From NCBI GenBank assembly GCA_036172245.1, contig JAYWIR010000001.1, positions 4,402,001-4,466,000 on the forward strand: a stretch of DNA of 64,000 bases, read 5' to 3'. Shown piece after piece: positions 477 to 35,700 of this stretch. The notes below the pieces were generated by a model. It was not told where the DNA came from. It ran no database searches and saw only the letters and a program-made list of their open reading frames with translations. Every line of letters begins with the position of its first letter. The first letter of the stretch is position 1. Made by a program: the position numbers and the translations under genes. This DNA comes from Raillietiella orientalis (taxonomy: Eukaryota).

Positions 477-3400
477 TTTTTGCTCTTCGTGAAAGCTCCC
501 GAAAAGGAAATCACAGCTTTGCTGTTTTGTTTGTTTTCTTTTTCTATCGGCTTGCTTTTCGTTTTACGTGTGCGCGCTTCGCCCGCTGCCCCGTGGTCCC
601 CTCCCCTCCCCCTCTTGTGCACCGGTTGTGGAACCAGGTGGCCGGTTGGGAATTTTCGTGGACTCCTGCCCCCCACCCGAGAGCAGTTCGTGCGCGCTGC
701 AGCGGCACCCCCGCCTTCGTGCAGAAAGACCACGGAGAGACCACCGCCGAATCAGAAGCTGTTTGCTACGCAGCTTCCCACGAAAGTTTCACGGCCCCCG
801 GCGGATTTGCAGAGCGTCTCTTCCTTGAGAAAAAATTGCTCTCGGTGGCTCAGTCTATGGCGCCTGCAACGTCGCAAGTGTCCCCCTCCCCCTTCCCTTT
901 GTTCCTTTGCTCTCCCGCCGTTCGCACCCGTGGTGAACCGTCATCGGATGCGTGGATGGTCACGAATAAAGTCCGCAAGGCGCCCAGGGCACCGGGGCCC
1001 GCAGAGAGAGGGAGGAGGGGGGAGGAGGAGCGTGTGTGTTGCCTGGGGCTGCCGCCCCGGTAACACACACAGTTGAGTGTTGCGGGCGCTTGCTGAGTCC
1101 AGTTGAGGAAAAAGATCCCGAATCAGACGTCTCCCTCTCTGGCGGGGCAACTCGCAGATCCGACCTCCGTGGCCGGAAGCGCCCTTGTGATCTGTCGCTC
1201 TGTTTCAGTGTCCCGAAATCAAAGATCACTGCGTGCTCTTGCAGCCTCTGATTGCTACTGCTTTCAGCGGATACCATTAACAGTGCTGGTGGTTTCCTAG
1301 GTCCTCCTTGTGTAAGTATCACGCCTTCGCGCGGCATCTGCTGAGCGTGCATCCCGTTCCTCTGCCTAGGAGCGAGCGGCAAAGGGTCGTTCGCTGGCAA
1401 AGGACGGCATGCATGCATGCGTGCGTGCGTGAGTGCGTGCGTGCATGTGTGCGCGCAAGGGACGTGGATCCTGAAGAGCGTTTCGGAAACGTAATCTCCG
1501 GCATCCCTGTGTTCACCCTATGTATCCCGTCTTGTAGGATTTCCCGAAAGGAAAGGCGACGACGCAGCAGCAGCAACAGCAGCAGCTCTACCCAAGCTCC
1601 TTGTTATGTAATACGAACGTTGCGTTTCCAAGTGCACACACGCATCCGAGGGCAGCTTGCCAGCGGCAAAGAACTCGAGGGCACGCGCACTTTCCTTCCT
1701 TCCTTCCTTCCCCCCTTCCCTTTTTTTTTTTTTTTTTTTTTTGTCTCCCCCTCTCATCCTCCCGTGTGCTGCAACGGACCGGATGATGGTGAACTGACCA
1801 GTGCACTAAAGGTCCCTTCTGCGAAGAGCATGGCGTCCTTCCTGCCTCGAAAAAGACCGCCACTTGCCTTTTATCCCACATATAGCAATAGAGTGTCAAG
1901 AAGGACGCCTGGAACTTGCGTCGGGAAGTGATTCTTCACTTGTGATGTGAATTCTTGTTGCATAGCAGAACGAAAAGTCTTTCACCGATCCCTATTTTTC
2001 GTTACGACGGACGAGTCTCCGTATTTATCATTATTTAACCGTTCGCTTCGGGAACGTCGGGCGCATCGATCGTGGATGCTGCTCTGTGGAAGGACGCTTT
2101 CTGTGTCTCTGTTGGTTGCGAAGTGCCTAACACGGCGTTTACCTCCCTCACCCCTGTTAACCCTGCGTTGGATATGTGGCTATTCAAGTTCTTCCTACAA
2201 TATTGTTATATATTTACATGTGATTATATATCGATTCATTATGTATCACGTGATCCACACTTCGCACGATGCTGTTTTCGAAACGATGCTGTTGCCGAGG
2301 TGAGGTCTTCGAATCGCGTGGACTGAAGGCCCCTCCTCCTTTCCCTTCCGTTCCTCAAAGGAATACCGGGGCTGCTGCACACGCAAAGGACTCTCTTTCT
2401 CGCTCCTTGTGGAAGGAGGAGGAGGAGGAGTGTGCGGAATCCACGGCGAGGACGTGCAGAGGACATCTTTTCCTCCGCGTTGGCAACCGGACCTCGTCTG
2501 CTTGTCCCGGCCGATGCACCGCCCTGTCGTCCGACACGGCTCCTGGAGGAGGAGAGACCAGAAACTTCGACCGGGAGCCATGCTCGGAGCTGTCCCGACC
2601 GACAGGGTGCTTCTACCCGCGGCCCCGGGACGTGCGACGTCCACCGGACCTCGGACTCCTGTCTCCGTGCCCGGCACGAAGAAGGGGCGCACCGCGGCTC
2701 CCTTCACTTCACGACCCCCGTCTCGCCCGTGCCACCGCCTCAGCTCGCCACCCCTCTTCCGTGCGGACCGCGTTGCGCCTCTGGTCGCCGACGCCGAGAG
2801 CCACCGGTCCCGCGCGGGTCGATCGATCCGCTTCCCGCTCGCCCCCGAGAGAGGAGAGGAGGAGCTTGGCGTCGCAGCATCATCCGTCTTCTCTTTTGCA
2901 CGAGCGCAGCGACAACGGCGGCGGTGGCGGACACCTGAGGCCGTGCCGAGGGGGACTGCGTTCGCGCGTTTGGCAGTTCTTCCTCCTCCTCCCCCATCTT
3001 CCCCTCCCCCTCCCCCCCGTGGGAGAGATTCCATGGTGACCAACGCGCTCACATCCTCCTCCCTCCCCCCGTTCGCCGTGTTGATTGGCGGCTGCGAAGA
3101 CCGGAAGACGAGAGGAAAAAACAAAGGAATGAAAGAAGGAAAGAAAAACAAACAAACAAAAACTTGTGATCACGGATGGTTGTTCTCGTTGCCATGTTAC
3201 ACTGATCTTGGTTTTCTCAGAGATTTGCAATATGCCAGTTTAAAAAAAAAAGAAAAAAAAAACAAGTGTTTTTTTTAAATAATAAACAAAGCAACAAAGG
3301 ACGAAAGGCAATAATAATAATAAAAGGGAGAATTCCAGAGTCCCTGCTTTTTATCCCGTTTCTCCCAGTCGGTGACGGGGAAGAAACGAGGGTGCCTCAC

Positions 3401-19229: not shown

Positions 19230-19387
19230 GTTCACATCTTTCATTCCTGGTTTGGAGTGTAAGGGGGCAGGTCAGTGAATTGCCGTTTACCCCCCCCGTC
19301 AGTAGCCTTGAGAGGGTGAATACGAAGATATACTTTGTTATTGTTTGCCAGTTCACAGTTGATAGGGTGATTGTGTTTTAATCAGGT

Positions 19388-20746
19388 ATGAGTAGCAACT
19401 GGTTGGCTTTTCCTCTGAATGCTGATCAGCGTGAAAAACTAGAGAAAGCCCGGTTGATTTCAGCAGAGGATATACAGGGTTTTTCTCCTTCTCATTTAAG
19501 TCACAGTAAGCCAGAGTGACTGACTGCTGGGAGCTACATGCAGGGTCTCTAGTTGCAGGCTTTACGCTTACAGAAGCTGAGAAGGTTCTCCAAATATGCC
19601 AAGCTGCTCCAGGAATCTTGTCAAATTTGGAGATTCAGACAGCGTTGCAGTTGCTGAAGGTGAGTTTGATGTTGCTTAAGACGGAAATGAGTTCTGAGTA
19701 AAGGAAGAGGCATCTCATACCAGCATTGTGACGTTTTGTCGGGAAATTGACGAAATGCTGGGACAGGGAATCCACTGTGGCAAACTGACAGAATTATGTG
19801 GTTCTCCTGGTATTGGGAAAACCCAGATGTGGTAGGCCTGTTACTTGAAAGATTCCGAGAAGAAAATCCATTAGCATGCAACTGGCCATTGATGTACAGA
19901 TTCCACTGCAGCTAGGAGGCCTGGAAGGAGAAGCTCTTTTCATTGATACAGAAGCCAGTTTTACTGTTGAGCGGCTGGAAGGTCAGAAGGACAAAATGTT
20001 CTTGGAGAACAAAATGTTCATTGCAATAATCTAGAAATAGCCCAAGCATGCGTGCATCATTGCCAACATCTCCATACTCTTCAGAAAGCAGAGAAAACAA
20101 CCGTATCAAAGTTAAGCATCAGTATGTTTCTTGGTGGGGTGCACTACATTAACTGTCAAGAATATTTAGAACTACTGGCCTTAATAAATTTGCTGGAAGA
20201 CTTCCTTCAAGAGCACCCCAAAGTGGGTAGTCTCAACTAAGGCTTTTCTTTTTTCACGTTTTCTAGGTTCGTCTTGTGGTAATTGATAGTTTAGCATTCC
20301 CTTTCCGATGTGAAATGACAGACTATGCCTTGAGAAGCCGCCTCCTGCATGGTGTAGGTCAGAAGCTGCAGCATCTGGCCATTCAGTACAAAATAGCAGT
20401 GAGTATCAGGATTCGGTGGAAGAATGGCTGATCAGTATTGTAGGTAGTTGTTACCAATCAGATGACCACGAGACTGAATGAGGATGGAGATTCGCACATC
20501 ATCCCTGCATTGGGGGAAAGTTGGGCACATGTTTGTTCTGTACGCTTACTCTTGTTTTGGCACAGCAAACAGAGATGGGCCAGATTGCTGAAATCACCGG
20601 AATTCAGCAGTAACCAGGTGATGTTTCAGGTATGTGTTTCTTGGGAAAAAGATATTTCTTAATCAGGACGTTAGATTACGACCTCCGGCATCCGAGATGT
20701 TCCTGTTTCACAAAAACACAATAATAAAAAAATGAAAATATCGTAG
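19388..20746 (+). CDS. RAD51C: RAD51 paralog C, 345 aa; exons 19388-19505, 19553-19659, 19704-19831, 19875-19981, 20035-20222, 20267-20398, 20444-20629, 20675-20746
   Basis: IVTFCREIDEMLG, Walker A GSPGIGKTQ, RAD51C-typical MQLAIDVQIP..LGGLEGEALFIDTE, Walker B LVVIDS, VVVTNQMTT, IPALGESWAH. Seven 43-53-nt introns keep frame (1038 nt). Confidence 0.95.
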
Positions 20747-20983
20747 TCCAGGCTTAGAAAATGTTTCGTTTTTTTTTTTTTTTTTCTCGTCTTTTTCTCA
20801 TAAGATTACATCTAATGAGAATCTAATTTAGATTATATCCAAAATGCAAATTTGTGATTGTGACTATAATCATTGGTTTGCTCATTACAGATGAGTGTTT
20901 TGAATTTACAATGCGGAAATTCCGATATTTTTAGTTAACATTTTTTGACCTGAATTTTCGAGTTCTAAAAGACCCCGTGAGCA

Positions 20984-23900
20984 ATGTTAAAAGGTGTCAT
21001 TCCAGGAGGAAACGTGCGCGGTAAGTGCTCTTTTGGCATTTTTTTTCTTGCTAATGAAGGGTTTCAGTTCTGGCCAGAGCATTGCAGTCCTTAGCACGCC
21101 TAACAGACGAAATTTATCTGGAACCATTGGCGGAAGGATTGATACTTCGAGCCGTGAATCCATCGCGTTCCGCGTACGCATCGTTCGTCTTTCGAAAATC
21201 TTTCTTCTCGTTTTATGAGATAAGGCAGCAGACGTCCCAAGATGACATACGGTCAAAAATACCCCTCAAGGCAAGTAAGGTTTTAACACTCGCGGCGCCA
21301 GTGTATGCATGGGCGACGGCAGTGGCGGCCCTGATTCAGAACCTCTTCCGCATAGTGGACGCAGAGGCTGGAACAGTGCTTGCAACCAGGGCAGATAATC
21401 CGCGGGACGAGACGCAATGCTGACTGCCTGCTTTGGTTGCTTCCGTTACGAGTGACGGGCGGGTGACCAAAGGGTGAATCCACCAGCATGCCTCAGAGTA
21501 ACAGACAAACCTGCGACAGCTAATTGACAGCTGAGCACCGATTGACAGCCAAACGGTGGTGCATGGTCGATACGTGTACAGGCAGCACGGCTGTCTGTTT
21601 CTCTTGGGATGCTGTTCTGAGATTACGTCTCGCTCTGCCTGCGACTTTTCTCTCACCCTGAGTAGTGTGAGTGGGCGAGTCGGTGTGGTCAAAGTACAAG
21701 TGTTGACACTTGTCGGCATGCGGGCATTTATGCACAAATTGAAGCGAGATAGCCTGTAAGGTTATCGTGCACTTTGAGGAATAGTTATCAGATTAAGTCG
21801 TTCGCGAACACGTTGCCGCCGGAACGAGTCATGTGACCCATACAGACTGGGCGTCCTGACCGATTCGGCACAGTTTTTTTCATTTTTTGCCCTCCTAGTC
21901 CTCGTTTATCCTTAAGCGCGGCCCGGAAAGCAGCAAGAATCCAGTGCAGAGCTTCCCTATTCGGATTTGTTGTTATTTTCGTAGGGTTGTGACCACATCG
22001 AAAGTGCTGCGAGGTCGGGGTCCTTGAAGCCTGCCTCCCCCACTGTTGGACAGGAGGCGTCTTTCGAGTCGTTGTTTTCCTCGCTTGCGTATCTCCCGGT
22101 AGATGCGACTTCGAAAATCGTGCGTGTGCTTCTTCTTGCGTGTGTGAGCATAAAGCCAACGAATGATGGCAAGACGTGCGCATAGCGGCCCTTGCGGTGC
22201 CGCACTTCGCGGGTAGTCATCGCTTGCCCGAAGATCGAAACGGGGGCGCCTTTGTGAACGGACCTGGCCCTAAATCGATCTCTAGAATTCGGACTGCTGC
22301 CCTTCCGAAGCCCGGAGGGGAAGGGTCACAGTTTCAGGCGCGTTTTCCCGTCCCAAGCTGGCGCAGTTGTTTCGTGGGGCACCAGCTTTCCCCGGGTCGA
22401 GCGCGGGCTCAGCAGTTGCAGGCTTGCAAGACGGTGCTGCCGCGTGTCGCGTGCACCTTGGAAACTTTCCCCCTCAGGTGTTCGCGAACCTGAGCGATTC
22501 GTGTGCTCGGGAAACGTTTCCGGATTTGCAGCAGGAGATCCGTCCGTCTGTCCCGTGTGGACCCGGGCGCGACAAACGCCGGCTCGAGCTCGCAGTGGAG
22601 AGGAGGCAGATGCTGCGAAAAAGAAAAAAGAAATGCCTACGAGCCTTACTGTTGTTGTTGTTCTTGTTATGATGATGATGATGTCCAGAGCGCGCGGAAG
22701 ACGCGCCACGAAACGAGACTGCTTCCGGATAGCAATTGCGCGTGCAGACACGGACGCACCCTTTTCGTGTCGGGAAGTGCGGATGTCTTCGCGGTCGGAT
22801 CCGACTCGCGGAAGTACGCACTGCGCGCGAAGCGGAACGTGTGTGTGGAGCTGCGGAAGGATGGGAGATGCGAGATCAGAGAAGGTCTCTGAAGGGGTGG
22901 GCGGGCGGGCCGCCTTCCAGCGGTTGCTTGCACTTGCGATTTATTAATCTCCTGCAGCCTCTGCTCACTGCCTTCAAGTCCCCGGCGACAGACCGCACTG
23001 TGGAAAAGTGCGAAATCAGCATGCGCCACGAGGAGGCCAGGCTCTCCCTGCGTCTGTGCTGCAGGCACGCCATCTTGAAAACGTGCACCATTTCTTGCAT
23101 CGAGTGCGAGACTTTAAACGTACAGTAAAAGGGGATCCCGCGGTGGCGGCCATGTGCTGACTCCTCTCGCCTCCCTTCCCTCCCCCCCCTCCAGGCCAAT
23201 TACCAGGCGGATAGCTGCGCGAACAAGATTGTTTGCGACACGAGGCTTCTTTCCGCCGCTTTGGGCAACTTCCAGCATTCGATGGACGAAGTCACGCTGT
23301 CTGTAAACCTCAAGCAGCTGACAATTTCGAACTACGTGGACGATGACCCAGGTATCGCCAAAAGGCGCGCGCGTGCGCCTGGTCCCGCGGTACCGGATGC
23401 GGCAACGGAGGTGCGTTGCTTCCAGATCCAACGAAGAGCGTCCGTACGACCGTCTGCCTTCAGAGTGGAGAGTTTCACACCTACGTCATCGGCGTCGTCA
23501 GCAAAGTGACTTTTTGCGTGAAAGACCTGAAGTCCCTGCTCTGCTTCGCCGAGAATTCGGACCTTCTGTTGACGCTGCAGTTCCACAGCGCCGGCACGTA
23601 AGCAGACAGAACCCGCTCATCCCTCATTCCCCCCCCCTCCCCCAATGCCGCCCTTGAGCACGTGGTGTTTTTTTTTTCTGAAGACCTTTGATCGTCACCC
23701 TCGACGGCCTGCCCGCCTTTGAAGTGACTTTCGTGCTGGCCACATTGACAGAAGTCGCCGACGACGGTGGCGAAGCCTTTGGTGCTTCGGTATCAGGTCG
23801 GTGCCGCCCCGGCTCCACTTGCTCGCGAAGGGCTCTCTTTTTTTCTAGAAAGCAGCAGTGTGTGCGAGCGGAAACACCGCGACCCCGACGAGCACGAGCA

Positions 23901-24009
23901 GCACTGCGTCAGCCTGTTCCAGAGATGCCTCGAGCCGACCTTCCACGCATCCCAACTGTCCGGATACAACGACATTTTGGCGCCTGATTCGGACGAGGAA
24001 TCCGCGTGA
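20984..24009 (+). CDS. RAD9A: 9-1-1 checkpoint clamp subunit RAD9, 334 aa; exons 20984-21020, 21068-21270, 22958-23119, 23195-23351, 23426-23597, 23684-23796, 23849-24009
   Basis: GGNVRVLARALQSLARLTDEIYLEP..GLILRAVNPSRSAYASFVF; TVEKCEI; VTFCVKDLKSLLCFAE; FVLATL; C-terminal LAPDSDEE tail. Frame is kept (1005 nt) only with a GC donor at 21271. Confidence 0.93.
21328..21875 (+). ncRNA. Candidate intronic H/ACA-type sno/scaRNA cluster or one large structured RNA in RAD9 intron 2
   Basis: Stems found by eye are followed directly by ANANNA boxes (21393, 21495, 21691, 21790) and by ACA triplets (21501, 21734, 21870); loops contain CGAG and TGAG. Not computationally folded. Confidence 0.4.
22160..22226 (+). 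ncRNA. Candidate miR-31/miR-72 family pre-miRNA in RAD9 intron 2
   Basis: 22167 TGGCAAGACGTGCGCATAGC matches insect miR-31a as recalled (TGGCAAGATGTCGGCATAGC) at 17/20 with intact seed, on the 5' arm of an imperfect hairpin (GATGGC/GTCATC, GCGGC/GCCGC). Confidence 0.33.
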
Positions 24010-32700: not shown

Positions 32701-35700
32701 AAGTGCTTGGGCAGATTAGACTTTCGATGAGACCGAGTGATCCATTCTCCAGTCGATCTCCCGATGGCCTCCGGCTGCCGGAAAGGTTCGCAGGTTCGCA
32801 GCGCCAGGAATTCGTTTTGTGTGGTGGATTCGTCATTCGAAGAAAACGAGAATGTGAACTGCCGCCCGTACAGTTAGTACAAATTAGTGTTAGTACATCC
32901 GTCGTTAGCCGAGTTGTGCGCTGTACGTGCGTAGGAGTAGTGTGCACGCCTCCTCCTCCTCCCCTTCTAACCCTGCTGTCGCCGTTTCCCTCTTCGCTTC
33001 CGCGGAGCGAGGATGCACAGGAGCGAAGTGACCTGTTGTTGCTGACTTGCGTGCAGCACGAGCCGAGACAAAAAAGTGTCCTCCGTTGCGTAACACTTCC
33101 GCAGTGACTTGTGTGTGTCTCTGTCTGGAGACCCTGGCGGATCGCTGGATCCTTCGGCAAGCGCCCACGACCTGCACCATGCCGGCATCATTTTAACTGC
33201 TGTTGTGTTTCGAGTCCCGAGGGATAGGAGTGGGAACGATGACAACAGCAGACAGCCAATGGGCAGCCCTGAGCGAAACACGTGGTGAAGTCCGGCGCGT
33301 CTTTCGATGGGAAAACTTGGCCGTCGGTGTACGGGCGCGGGACAGGGCGACCTCGCGCTCGTGGAAGTGAGCTCCCGGGGGTGCTCTCCGTCTACCCAGC
33401 CTCTTTGTTCACGCAGGGTTCTGGACCCGTGCTCGACCTTCGCAGGGTCCTGCAGGCGCGATGCGGCTATACGGCCCTTGGCCAGCGTGCCTTTGCGCAT
33501 TAGCCCCGAGCACCCGCCCAGGCGAAGATACGTGGGTCCCGGCCGACCGACTGCGTGCAGTTGCTGGGAGAGCAGCGTTTCCGGGAGCTCGAAGAGTACA
33601 GTGGTCGACCGGATGAAACTCGGTGACCGGGGAGCGAGTTGACCGCGGGAAAGCGCGCTTGCCGTCTGAGGCGACTTTAGCCGCGACGAGGACGCTTGAA
33701 GGCTTGCTGACGTCACTTTTCCGTGACCCGGCTCGTGTGCTTGGAAACTTCGCCAGCGCCGGTTTGAAGATCGATGCCCGCCGGCGGTGCAGCTCGGAGC
33801 TTGTCGAGTCACGCGGCTTCGGTCTCTGGTAAATCAAATCAAGGACGAAAGTCATGGTGGTTGGATTTTTTTTCTTGTTGCTTCCTGAGGGGTTCGAAGC
33901 GTTACGTCACGTAAACCTTAATGTAATTCCATTCATGGGTTTCATTAAGCAACATAAATAAATGCGTTCAATTTGTTGATTAGAGATATATGCATATTAT
34001 TACCCGTTACACGATATCCATATTGCTATTCAGATTACACCTTTTCATCACCTTGTATTCACAGTATATAATAATTGACTTTGAGAAAGCGTGAAAGCTT
34101 TGATTTGCGAGTACCAAAAGTGTTCTGATCGCAGTGTTTCCTAATATCGTAAGGGGACAGCGTACAAAATAAAAGAAAAGAAAAGAATTTGTCGAGAGTA
34201 ATTTGTTATAATGATCATTGACTTCGATGGTTAATAATCGTTATGACGAATTGATTTCAATAATAATTGATCTCAGTGATTCACTAAAGTGAAGGGCTCA
34301 TGAACTCGGCTTACAGACTTTAAAAACCGTATGTAGTGTATGTATGCAATGCAAACTGCAAGCCGTGGAACGTGGAAATGGGAATTTGGAAGCTGCTTTC
34401 CACGTGGAAAGGAAAGGGGGAGCAGGCTGTGGTAGTCATGGCAACCTCTCTCTTGAGGAACGACGCGGCTCCGCGAATTACACGGGGGAAATTGCTTCGG
34501 GTGGAATACCTGTGTGTCTCGTCCGCACTGGCGCCTGGACCTCGCAATTCAGCGTCCTCGGATCTGGACCGCCAGACGATCTGGAAAATTAGGAGCGCGA
34601 GTTTCCAGCTCGGTGGCCACCCAAGCCCCTTCGCCGCAGACGTCCAGGATCGTGTTTTTGGGAGTGCGTCTCTGCGGCGCGCGCGCTTCCGTGGGGAGGG
34701 CTGGAGAGACAAGCTCTCGCCGTCGTAGGGGCGTGCGGATCCCGCCGAAGGAAGGAGATGGGGACCGGATCGCCGGCCAGCTGACTGGCTGGCTGCTGTT
34801 TCCCTCATTCTCCGCTGCCCCTCTGCGGCGTTGCGTGCGCGCGCCTTTGTCTGTCTCGAAAGGCTGGAAATCTGGAAGTTCTTTTCTGGAAAACATCCTG
34901 CGCGTTTTTCGGGGTGCAGGGACTTCGCGGTGCGGAAGGTGACGGGCGAGAGCGAAGGATCCTGGGGCGGCGGGGCTGTGAGAGGGTCCGGCTCCGCGCC
35001 GAGACGAGCAGCGGTCCTCTCCCGCCGGAGAGTGTCGCCGGCCGCTGGCATGGGTGCTCGCAAAACCTCAAAAATCCTAAAGAGGCAGAGGCTGGAACTT
35101 TCTCCGTGGGAGAACCTCCCTTCCTCCCCCCTGCCGGACCTTGGCTTCGGACTTCTAATGTCGAAAGCGTCCCCATCGGGGAAAATACCACCCTTCCTCC
35201 CGCTTTCCGGTTTCAAGGTCCTCCGCTGCCCTCCGGACAGTGGAGAATACGGAAGGGACATTAGGGTCCCGTCGAGAGGTTCCGGCGGCCCGCAAGGCGC
35301 CTCTTCGTCGCCTTCCCGCTGTTGTCATGGCAGCCCCTGAGTTCCTTGCCCGGAGCACTCGAGTCGCTTGGCAGTGCTTGCGATACGCGTGAGTGCCAGC
35401 GTGATATCATAGCCGATGGGAAGGCGGGTTCTGCCTCCCCCCCTCTTGTTTGTCGTCGGCTGTGCGGTCAGCTGGGACCCTCCGCTCTCGAGGTCGGCGA
35501 CCCCCTCCCCTTTTCACGAGGTCCGCCGCCATCCTCCCTCGCCGCGCATTTGCCACGCCCCACCAGCCGCAGAGACGCGAGCGCGTGTCTATGTATCGGG
35601 ATTCTTGCTGACGGCGCTCTCCTTCCTTCCGGAAGAAGGTTGCGTGGCAACCCGCAGCAGCTTCCTGGCAAGGAAGCTTTGGGGGCGAGGGGATCCGGCG

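Follow-up and report, generated by a model that had tools for sequence, protein, structure and literature searches.

Box H/ACA RNAs that lie in introns in the sense of their host genes, as described for Drosophila pugU2-35/45 and its relatives (PMC3884663), are the closest described counterparts of the locus studied here. They carry the word ANANNA after hairpins, as does the candidate RNA in an SF3B3 intron that served as our positive control, and in the intronic guides described in the same source the last hairpin is followed by ACA and three nucleotides, with UGAG in one apex (PMC3884663). A longer form is represented by snR30/U17 (SNORA73), a non-guide H/ACA RNA of 200-600 nt that has an H/ACA-like 3' end, is described as having no modification target and carries its motifs m1 and m2 in the 3' hairpin (PMC7601244). 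The telomerase RNA of Caenorhabditis, as presented in PMC12921731, occupies an enlarged intron of a housekeeping gene, nmy-2, with a few hundred structured bases and an H/ACA-like end, and the RNase P RNA embedded in insect and crustacean introns sets a precedent for a structured RNA within a polymerase II intron (PMC4287351). A different relation between an intron and a small RNA is described for SNORD2 and EIF4A2, where a snoRNA-intron duplex hides a branch point and thereby tunes a decay-prone exon (PMC10324135).

The locus is a 548-nt stretch (21328-21875) in the one long intron of RAD9 in the Raillietiella orientalis genome, in which a reading from the letters alone had proposed three tandem hairpin-H box-hairpin-ACA units, forming either a new sno/scaRNA cluster or one long H/ACA RNA. 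Our analysis confirms that observation partly and lends partial support to the H/ACA interpretation. The stretch is like the intronic guides in its sense orientation, its ANANNA words, its last hairpin and the UGAG of one apex, whereas it differs from them in lacking a targeted pocket 13-17 nt from a box, in its long hinges, in having no Rfam match and in units that do not take the two-hairpin form at low cost. With snR30/U17 it has in common its length, its 3' end and the lack of a modification target, and with the nematode telomerase RNA its setting, its size and its end. The likeliest reading is that of ordinary structured intron sequence; an unusual orphan RNA has a minority chance.

The RAD9 intron and its folding

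The window, which is the whole 64,000-nt stretch of DNA that was analysed, corresponds to C1:4402001-4466000 of the assembly, and whole-genome searches covered 210 Mb in 491 contigs. The identification of the host gene as RAD9 is sustained by matches to Pfam PF04139 in four of the six exon pieces tested, and the 334-aa open-frame model gives introns of 47, 1687, 75, 74, 86 and 52 nt, the sizes reported before, with an ambiguous boundary at the last of them (three possible forms, 52-55 nt). The GC donor of intron 2 is in phase 0, and a GT four bases downstream falls out of phase. In three DNA searches in which very common words were skipped the intron region was single copy and not a high-copy repeat. 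Four ORFs spanning the intron had zero Pfam matches, and a homologue search with a 127-residue minus-strand ORF over it was empty; RAD9 exon 2 found only one locus in metagenomes, on a bacterial contig without a RAD9 gene. The features of the locus are collected in Table 1.

Table 1. Features of the RAD9 locus and predicted structures of intron 2 (window positions; p, predicted pairing probability; z, folding z-score)
Feature	Position	Strand	Description
RAD9 coding span	20984..24009	+	7 exons, 334 aa; Pfam Rad9 plus open-frame model
RAD9 intron 2	21271..22957	+	1687 nt, GC-AG (AAG/GCAAGT ... TGCAG), single copy
5' domain	21271..21383	+	GC donor 21271-21277 paired with 21377-21383, predicted p 0.94
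Unit 1 5' hairpin and AGATAA	21328..21398	+	forms only if folded alone; z -1.84 alone, basal stem p 0.0 in context
18-bp hairpin with CGAG loop	21431..21472	+	z -4.0; p 0.95
Most stable domain	21484..21614	+	long irregular helix closing three hairpins; z -4.41; absent from the sequence-only reading
70-nt hairpin, then AAAGTA directly (H-box-like)	21621..21696	+	basal stem p 0.81; z -2.1
Short hairpins and branched domain	21696..21817	+	contains unit 2 3' stem, ACA 21734, unit 3 5' stem, AGATTA 21790
Terminal 52-nt hairpin, then immediately ACA and 3 nt	21818..21875	+	p 0.99; without usable pocket
T-rich tract ending in TAG	21874..21898	+	strong internal 3' splice-site candidate

The dense stems that had drawn attention to the stretch hold against shuffling, with a z-score of -2.87 for the 548 nt and none of 100 shuffles as stable, but they are less exceptional among real sequence, where three of 41 tiles (randomly chosen from the 115 548-nt tiles of the window) fold equally well. 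The stretch thus folds above chance, though modestly, and none of the 120-nt windows inside it falls below z -1.7. Most of the signal comes from domain 21484-21614 and from the 18-bp hairpin, the boundaries of both of which were chosen post hoc (z-scores in Table 1), and the former ranks ninth of 3194 131-nt windows, 60 of which were rescored, after seven other loci in the window. Within the 5' domain a hairpin at 21331-21376 is predicted at p 0.91-0.99. The 5' arm of the 18-bp hairpin could instead pair with 21382-21394, giving a rival 13-bp stem of -20.7 kcal/mol, and bases 21388-21395 are predicted to pair with the end of the T-rich tract (0.96).

By eye, the sequence shows several short palindromes and TGACAG words that recur, and the CpG observed/expected ratio, 0.1-0.4 over the upstream genes, climbs to about 1.0 at 21001 and beyond. 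These features would fit an element that acts at the DNA level, such as an internal promoter or enhancer, or an old, unrecognisable mobile-element relic, with the palindromes yielding the stems. We consider such an element unlikely, as the region is single copy and without a coding remnant, and the high CpG spans the whole downstream region rather than being local. The two strands also behave differently: at p>0.8 the plus strand forms 98 pairs, of which 11 are G-U, and the minus strand 46 pairs with two G-U. The G-U-rich stems of the plus strand point to RNA rather than to symmetry of the DNA.

H/ACA-like layout, pockets and targets

Every motif listed in the sequence-only reading is found at its position. 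The arrangement of three non-overlapping hairpin-H-hairpin-ACA units occurs in one of 4000 shuffles and, among 464 real half-overlapping windows, in this stretch only, at thresholds that were fitted to units 1-3. At six other settings the observed number of units was matched in 0, 1, 6, 11, 32 and 74 of 800 shuffles, and a strict setting with the short hinge and tail of typical guides gave no unit in the stretch. The box words themselves occur at chance frequency (H, 6 against 6.9 expected; ACA, 13 against 11.4).

The stems of this layout fare unequally when the surrounding sequence is allowed to fold. Of six basal stems proposed, GATTACG/TGTGGTC and GCCG/CGGC stand (0.81 and 0.99), whereas those of the unit 1 5' and 3' hairpins, the unit 2 3' hairpin and the unit 3 5' hairpin have p 0.0 in context. 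A further pairing suggested between CTGCCTG and CAGGCAG also has p 0.0 in the nested ensemble, a model outside which pseudoknots lie. AGAGTA-ACA (21495-21503) is buried within domain 21484-21614, where the ACA of unit 1 sits in a rival helix at p 0.99, and the stems at ACA 21734 and AGATTA 21790 are not favoured in domain 21696-21817. A buried box is not decisive, because the boxes of our positive control, a candidate H/ACA RNA of 116-122 nt in SF3B3 intron 4 of the same genome, are themselves predicted to be paired in their intron (unpaired 0.11 and 0.17). Folded alone, the control takes the two-hairpin form at a cost of 0.8 kcal/mol, while units 1-3 pay penalties of 7.8, 3.8 and 4.9 kcal/mol; the z-scores are -2.7 for the control and -1.8, -0.7 and -1.1 for the units. 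Between H box and 3' stem the control has a hinge of 2 nt, where unit 1 has 18 nt and unit 3 has 19-22 nt. As to the CAB-like words, each of which is found five times in the stretch as a 4-nt word, TGAG 21659 lies in an apex of hairpin 21621-21696 that is left open in the centroid, and CGAG 21449 caps a hairpin without proper H/ACA form.

Pockets were scored against the genome's own 18S, 5.8S and 28S rRNA (28S model positions 1-1650 and 1891-3399), U1, U4, U5, U6 and partial U2 copies, a set outside which lie about 240 model positions of 28S and the minor-spliceosome snRNAs. Under an initial scoring the control did not stand out from shuffled targets (11/60), so G-U pairs were limited and the search was rerun. 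In the rerun the 3' pocket of the control had its top hit at 18S position 1049, 14 nt from the ACA (10/200 null sets), within the 13-16 nt that PMC8763049 gives as the rule for the spacing of box and target U, and its 5' hairpin gave nothing, so the test is a weak one. In the stretch, none of the pockets at seven boxes has a target above the null of shuffled target sets: at six boxes the best target was equalled by 87, 117, 60, 85, 30 and 147 of 200 shuffled sets, including hairpins 21621-21696 (85/200) and 21818-21875 (147/200), and at box 21790 an unbranched upper stem is absent. Resemblance to 18S in the same sense (12 + 9 nt, at 21555 and 21540) was reached in 7 of 1000 shuffles and was rejected, as 6 of 103 real windows reach the same.

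These results bear most directly on the proposal that the stretch encodes two or three ordinary guide sno/scaRNAs of 120-180 nt that direct rRNA or snRNA pseudouridylation. In its favour are the layout statistic and a near miss, in which AGATA (21747-21751) and CACTTTGA (21770-21777) form 13 Watson-Crick pairs around a U2 pseudouridine that we take to be position 35. However, this pairing sits 20 nt away from the box, its 5' arm is within a stem of p 0.97, and 71 of 200 shuffles score equally. Working Drosophila scaRNAs are described as tolerating degenerate pockets and unstable folds (PMC3884663), and a target might fall in the part of 28S or the minor-spliceosome snRNAs beyond our set. With no target that exceeds the null at any of seven boxes, and with long hinges, costly two-hairpin forms and weak z-scores for the units, the cluster of three guides proposed earlier is not upheld, and guides of this kind are quite improbable.

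A better case can be made for a single RNA of another kind. The terminal hairpin, followed by ACA, three nucleotides and a T run, makes a good 3' end of the H/ACA type, and it is the only one among the 44 sites of the window in which ACA is followed after 1-3 nt by TTTT, in a test devised post hoc. We give a minority chance to one orphan box H/ACA RNA that would be trimmed from the spliced intron and end at 21875. In long H/ACA RNAs the hinge holds inserted hairpins, and the best-folding form of the putative RNA would likewise be one of 255 nt (21621-21875) with a hairpin, AAAGTA, hinge hairpins, a hairpin, and ACA and 3 nt; it may extend 5' over domain 21484-21614 or beyond, to 390-550 nt. 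Such an RNA would bind dyskerin for its stability but would not guide pseudouridylation; its role would be that of a scaffold or chaperone, and it might pair with the branch-point region of U2 and use UGAG as its Cajal-body signal. The minimum-free-energy and centroid structures of 21621-21875 give the same layout, its outer stems are the sole two of the six that hold, the two strands are asymmetric, and long inserted forms have precedent in a class in which yeast snR30 is given as 606 nt (PMC7601244). The stretch is enriched in short words that could pair with the U2 branch-point region (P 0.003-0.013, tested post hoc), but two words are double-counted, part of the signal is due to the AGATA boxes, and two of 163 other 40-nt tiles equal it. 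Also against an orphan RNA, the z-score of the 255-nt form is only -1.14 (27/200 shuffles) and no Rfam family matches.

Known RNA classes and the telomerase RNA question

The Rfam comparison proposed as a check gave no family at gathering score in the window, and the intron, whole or in parts, gave nothing better than E 1.7 in four scans by E-value. An exact C box is absent, and although three words come within one mismatch of it, CTGA follows none of the antisense runs listed, so that box C/D features were not found. The snR30/U17 motifs m1 and m2 are absent from the plus strand at up to one mismatch. Repeated GAUC in the 5' hairpin is described as the mark of 7SK (PMC2995076), and no GATC occurs in 21271-21900. 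Genome-wide searches with the 7SK and U17 models gave zero matches and were uninformative, since the models matched nowhere. RF00009 and RF00030 do not match the stretch, which in this differs from the intron-embedded RNase P RNAs; the RNase P and MRP RNA genes were found at other loci of the genome. The RNase P RNA gene appears to be intronic there, judged by flanking splice signals, and together with the candidate in SF3B3 intron 4 it indicates that this genome hosts RNAs in enlarged introns.

A transcript made by polymerase III, either with a tRNA-like head (21508-21591) or of 7SK type, and ending in the T run, would account for words resembling the A and B boxes at 21517 and 21565, 48 nt apart under a loosened consensus. 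The best local alignment to a tRNA of the genome was reached in 13 of 300 shuffles, and no 7SK gene was found elsewhere in the genome by the uninformative search above. But 86 places in the window carry the loose A/B pattern, an equally good alignment is reached by 20 of 320 real windows, GAUC is absent and a run of four T at 21646 interrupts the transcript, all of which makes such a transcript very unlikely. The tRNA-like head in domain 21484-21614 was itself rejected as a candidate: a covariance model built from 30 of the at least 62 genome tRNA matches listed finds nothing there, and ARAGORN gave a match only at a 70% threshold, among 254 predictions.

The most exciting version of the locus would be an intron-hosted telomerase RNA, of the H/ACA type and like that of Caenorhabditis. 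A TERT gene is present in the genome, a (TTAGG)n tract terminates contig C13, so that the telomeres are TTAGG, and the starts of the 20 largest contigs showed no telomere. Together with the apparently intronic RNase P RNA, these features indicate an arthropod and probably a pancrustacean, intronic RNase P RNA being reported for insects and crustaceans (PMC4287351). As far as the account in a 2025 review goes, telomerase RNA was not known in the non-insect arthropod group concerned (PMC12133305). The telomerase RNA of this genome was not located among 17 of 23 places with a template pattern or in about 30 kb around Nup98-96, and the size and 3' end of the stretch are compatible with such an RNA. 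However, no template is found. The sequence-only reading had itself reported none, and this is borne out: the longest match in the CCUAA phase between 20800 and 23000 on both strands is 6 nt, and on the plus strand it falls in coding exon 2, whereas the intronic nematode templates are described as one repeat and at least 2 nt more (PMC12921731). RF00024, which models the vertebrate RNA, is unmatched in the stretch and in the genome, and no order of template and pseudoknot like that of the metazoan H/ACA telomerase RNAs (PMC8480181) was seen by eye. Because the telomeres are TTAGG and the intron is without a template, we exclude telomerase RNA, a reading that is improbable in the extreme. The analogies with telomerase RNA and RNase P RNA that had been drawn for this intron thus both fail, the former for its missing template and the latter because the RNase P gene lies elsewhere and is unmatched here.

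An internal acceptor and the meaning of the locus

The T run after the last ACA extends into CATTTTTTGCCCTCCTAG and also reads as the tract of a candidate acceptor at 21898 with 20 pyrimidines in 22 positions, a level reached by 16 of the 1553 YAG sites; the real acceptor of intron 2 has 15. About 40 nt upstream of 21898, in the 3' arm of the terminal hairpin, is a branch-point-like CTGAC (21856-21860). The reading frame past 21898 meets a stop after 42 codons (codon 43), and no strong donor that would close an exon after 21898 was found, the best being 6/9 at 22099. Like the SNORD2-EIF4A2 case, the locus has a branch-point-like word predicted to be paired upstream of an acceptor that leads to a premature stop; the two differ in that a proven C/D snoRNA with conserved pairing is described there (PMC10324135), whereas the RAD9 case is a prediction.

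Our leading explanation, to which we assign about an even chance, is that the stretch is structured intron sequence from which a separate small RNA is not made. It would then be a unique, fairly well-folding piece of pre-mRNA at the 5' end of RAD9 intron 2, with no RNA released, and the H- and ACA-like words are best read as short A-rich words adjoining stems. The larger share of this estimate falls to a neutral version, which is quite conceivable and in which 21898 may equally be a cryptic site of no consequence, and the smaller to a rather unlikely version in which the structure, if functional, would act in cis on splicing. Sequence and predicted folding show a weak GC donor in a predicted helix, a chain of hairpins of which the last contains the branch-point-like CTGAC, and then the long pyrimidine tract and AG at 21898. 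In the cis-acting version, with the terminal hairpin folded, the branch point would be hidden and the internal acceptor silent; with the hairpin open, the GC donor would join 21898, and the added exon would bring in a stop once 42 codons were read, giving an unproductive RAD9 message.

The evidence for structured intron sequence without a released RNA is that Rfam is empty, the boxes are at chance, four of six stems vanish in context, no pocket has a target, folding is equalled by three of 41 tiles and by seven other loci of the window, and the T run can also be explained as an acceptor tract. Against it stand the layout, unique in 464 windows at the tight setting and seen in one of 4000 shuffles, the strand asymmetry, the 3' end unique among 44 sites, the weakness of the pocket test, the missing exon-closing donor and the intronic RNAs hosted elsewhere in this genome. 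The two lines could also meet. In a tentative and rather doubtful combination, an orphan H/ACA RNA of 255-550 nt without a guide pocket would pair with the U2 branch-point region or act as a Cajal-body scaffold, while its terminal hairpin would hide the branch point of a decay-inducing acceptor. No RAD9-hosted snoRNA or comparable RNA was found in Rfam or in the open literature.

In summary, the locus as it stands carries little weight, being a well-folding intron segment for which no product is shown. If the orphan RNA is real, the short list of long non-guide H/ACA RNAs, which holds telomerase RNA and snR30/U17, would grow by one, and the DNA-damage checkpoint would supply a new host gene; if it is real together with the acceptor, assembly of an RNA particle would be coupled to the output of a checkpoint gene.

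RAD9 intron 2 and its surroundings

Downstream of the structured block (21328-21875) in the second intron of RAD9, a candidate cassette exon can be delimited by predicted splice sites, and this 114-nt segment is in frame and carries no stop codon. On the opposite strand most of the block itself is spanned by a stop-free frame of 141 codons, for which Pfam and homologue searches returned no Pfam match and no homologue. Several other places in the window match or surpass the best-folding domain of the block (21484-21614) in folding strength, namely the 131-nt windows starting at 1304, 27724, 34164-34184, 40184, 50164, 54944 and 63284, whose z scores against shuffled sequence range from -4.2 to -5.1.

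Around the start of RAD9 (20500-21000), CpG observed/expected jumps to about 1.0, having been 0.1-0.4 over the upstream genes, and GC content climbs as well. The gene 5' of RAD9, which by eye looks RAD51C-like, lies on the same strand at a distance of about 240 nt. Acceptor-like AG sites immediately precede ATG codons at 19380-19390 and 20885-20895, which might point to introns in the 5' UTR or to trans-splicing.

Features in the window and elsewhere in the genome (G000; C, contig; L, stretch outside the window with local coordinates)
Feature	Location	Strand	Remarks
Candidate cassette exon	window:21985-22098		second internal acceptor 21984 and weak donor 22099, both predicted
Stop-free frame	window:21336-21761	minus	
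U3 match	L048:3879-4049, G000:C51	minus	clustered with U5 and U1 genes
TERT	L025:688-2877, G000:C23	minus	single open frame
RNase P RNA match	L026:1501-1791 = G000:C34:1525755-1526045	minus	sole match found
Compact H/ACA RNA	L088:2450-2571, G000:C64, SF3B3 intron 4		z -2.7

Putative RNA-gene-derived copies, telomerase and telomere

About 390 nt of 28S match (L035:2900-3290) occur dispersed in the genome, with 40 scored matches at 83-100% identity, the majority ending close to query position 389; these pieces look like a 28S-derived short repeat family. Each of the best U2 matches (L037, L038, L039 and L052) is missing the 5' end of U2, and they share a common start point; no intact U2 gene was seen. 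Such copies are as expected for remnants of a retroelement that targets U2.

TERT reads through at least 729 residues uninterrupted by an intron. One end of contig C13 (L024:1500-2594) consists of about 1.1 kb of TTAGG, and the TAGG units scattered within it may reflect errors in the reads or slippage by telomerase.

A control H/ACA RNA and a probably intronic RNase P RNA

The H/ACA RNA of SF3B3 intron 4 served as positive control, and the best match of its 3' pocket is 18S position 1049, 14 nt from the ACA. The RNase P RNA match is flanked by what look like the 5' and 3' splice sites of a protein gene in the same sense.
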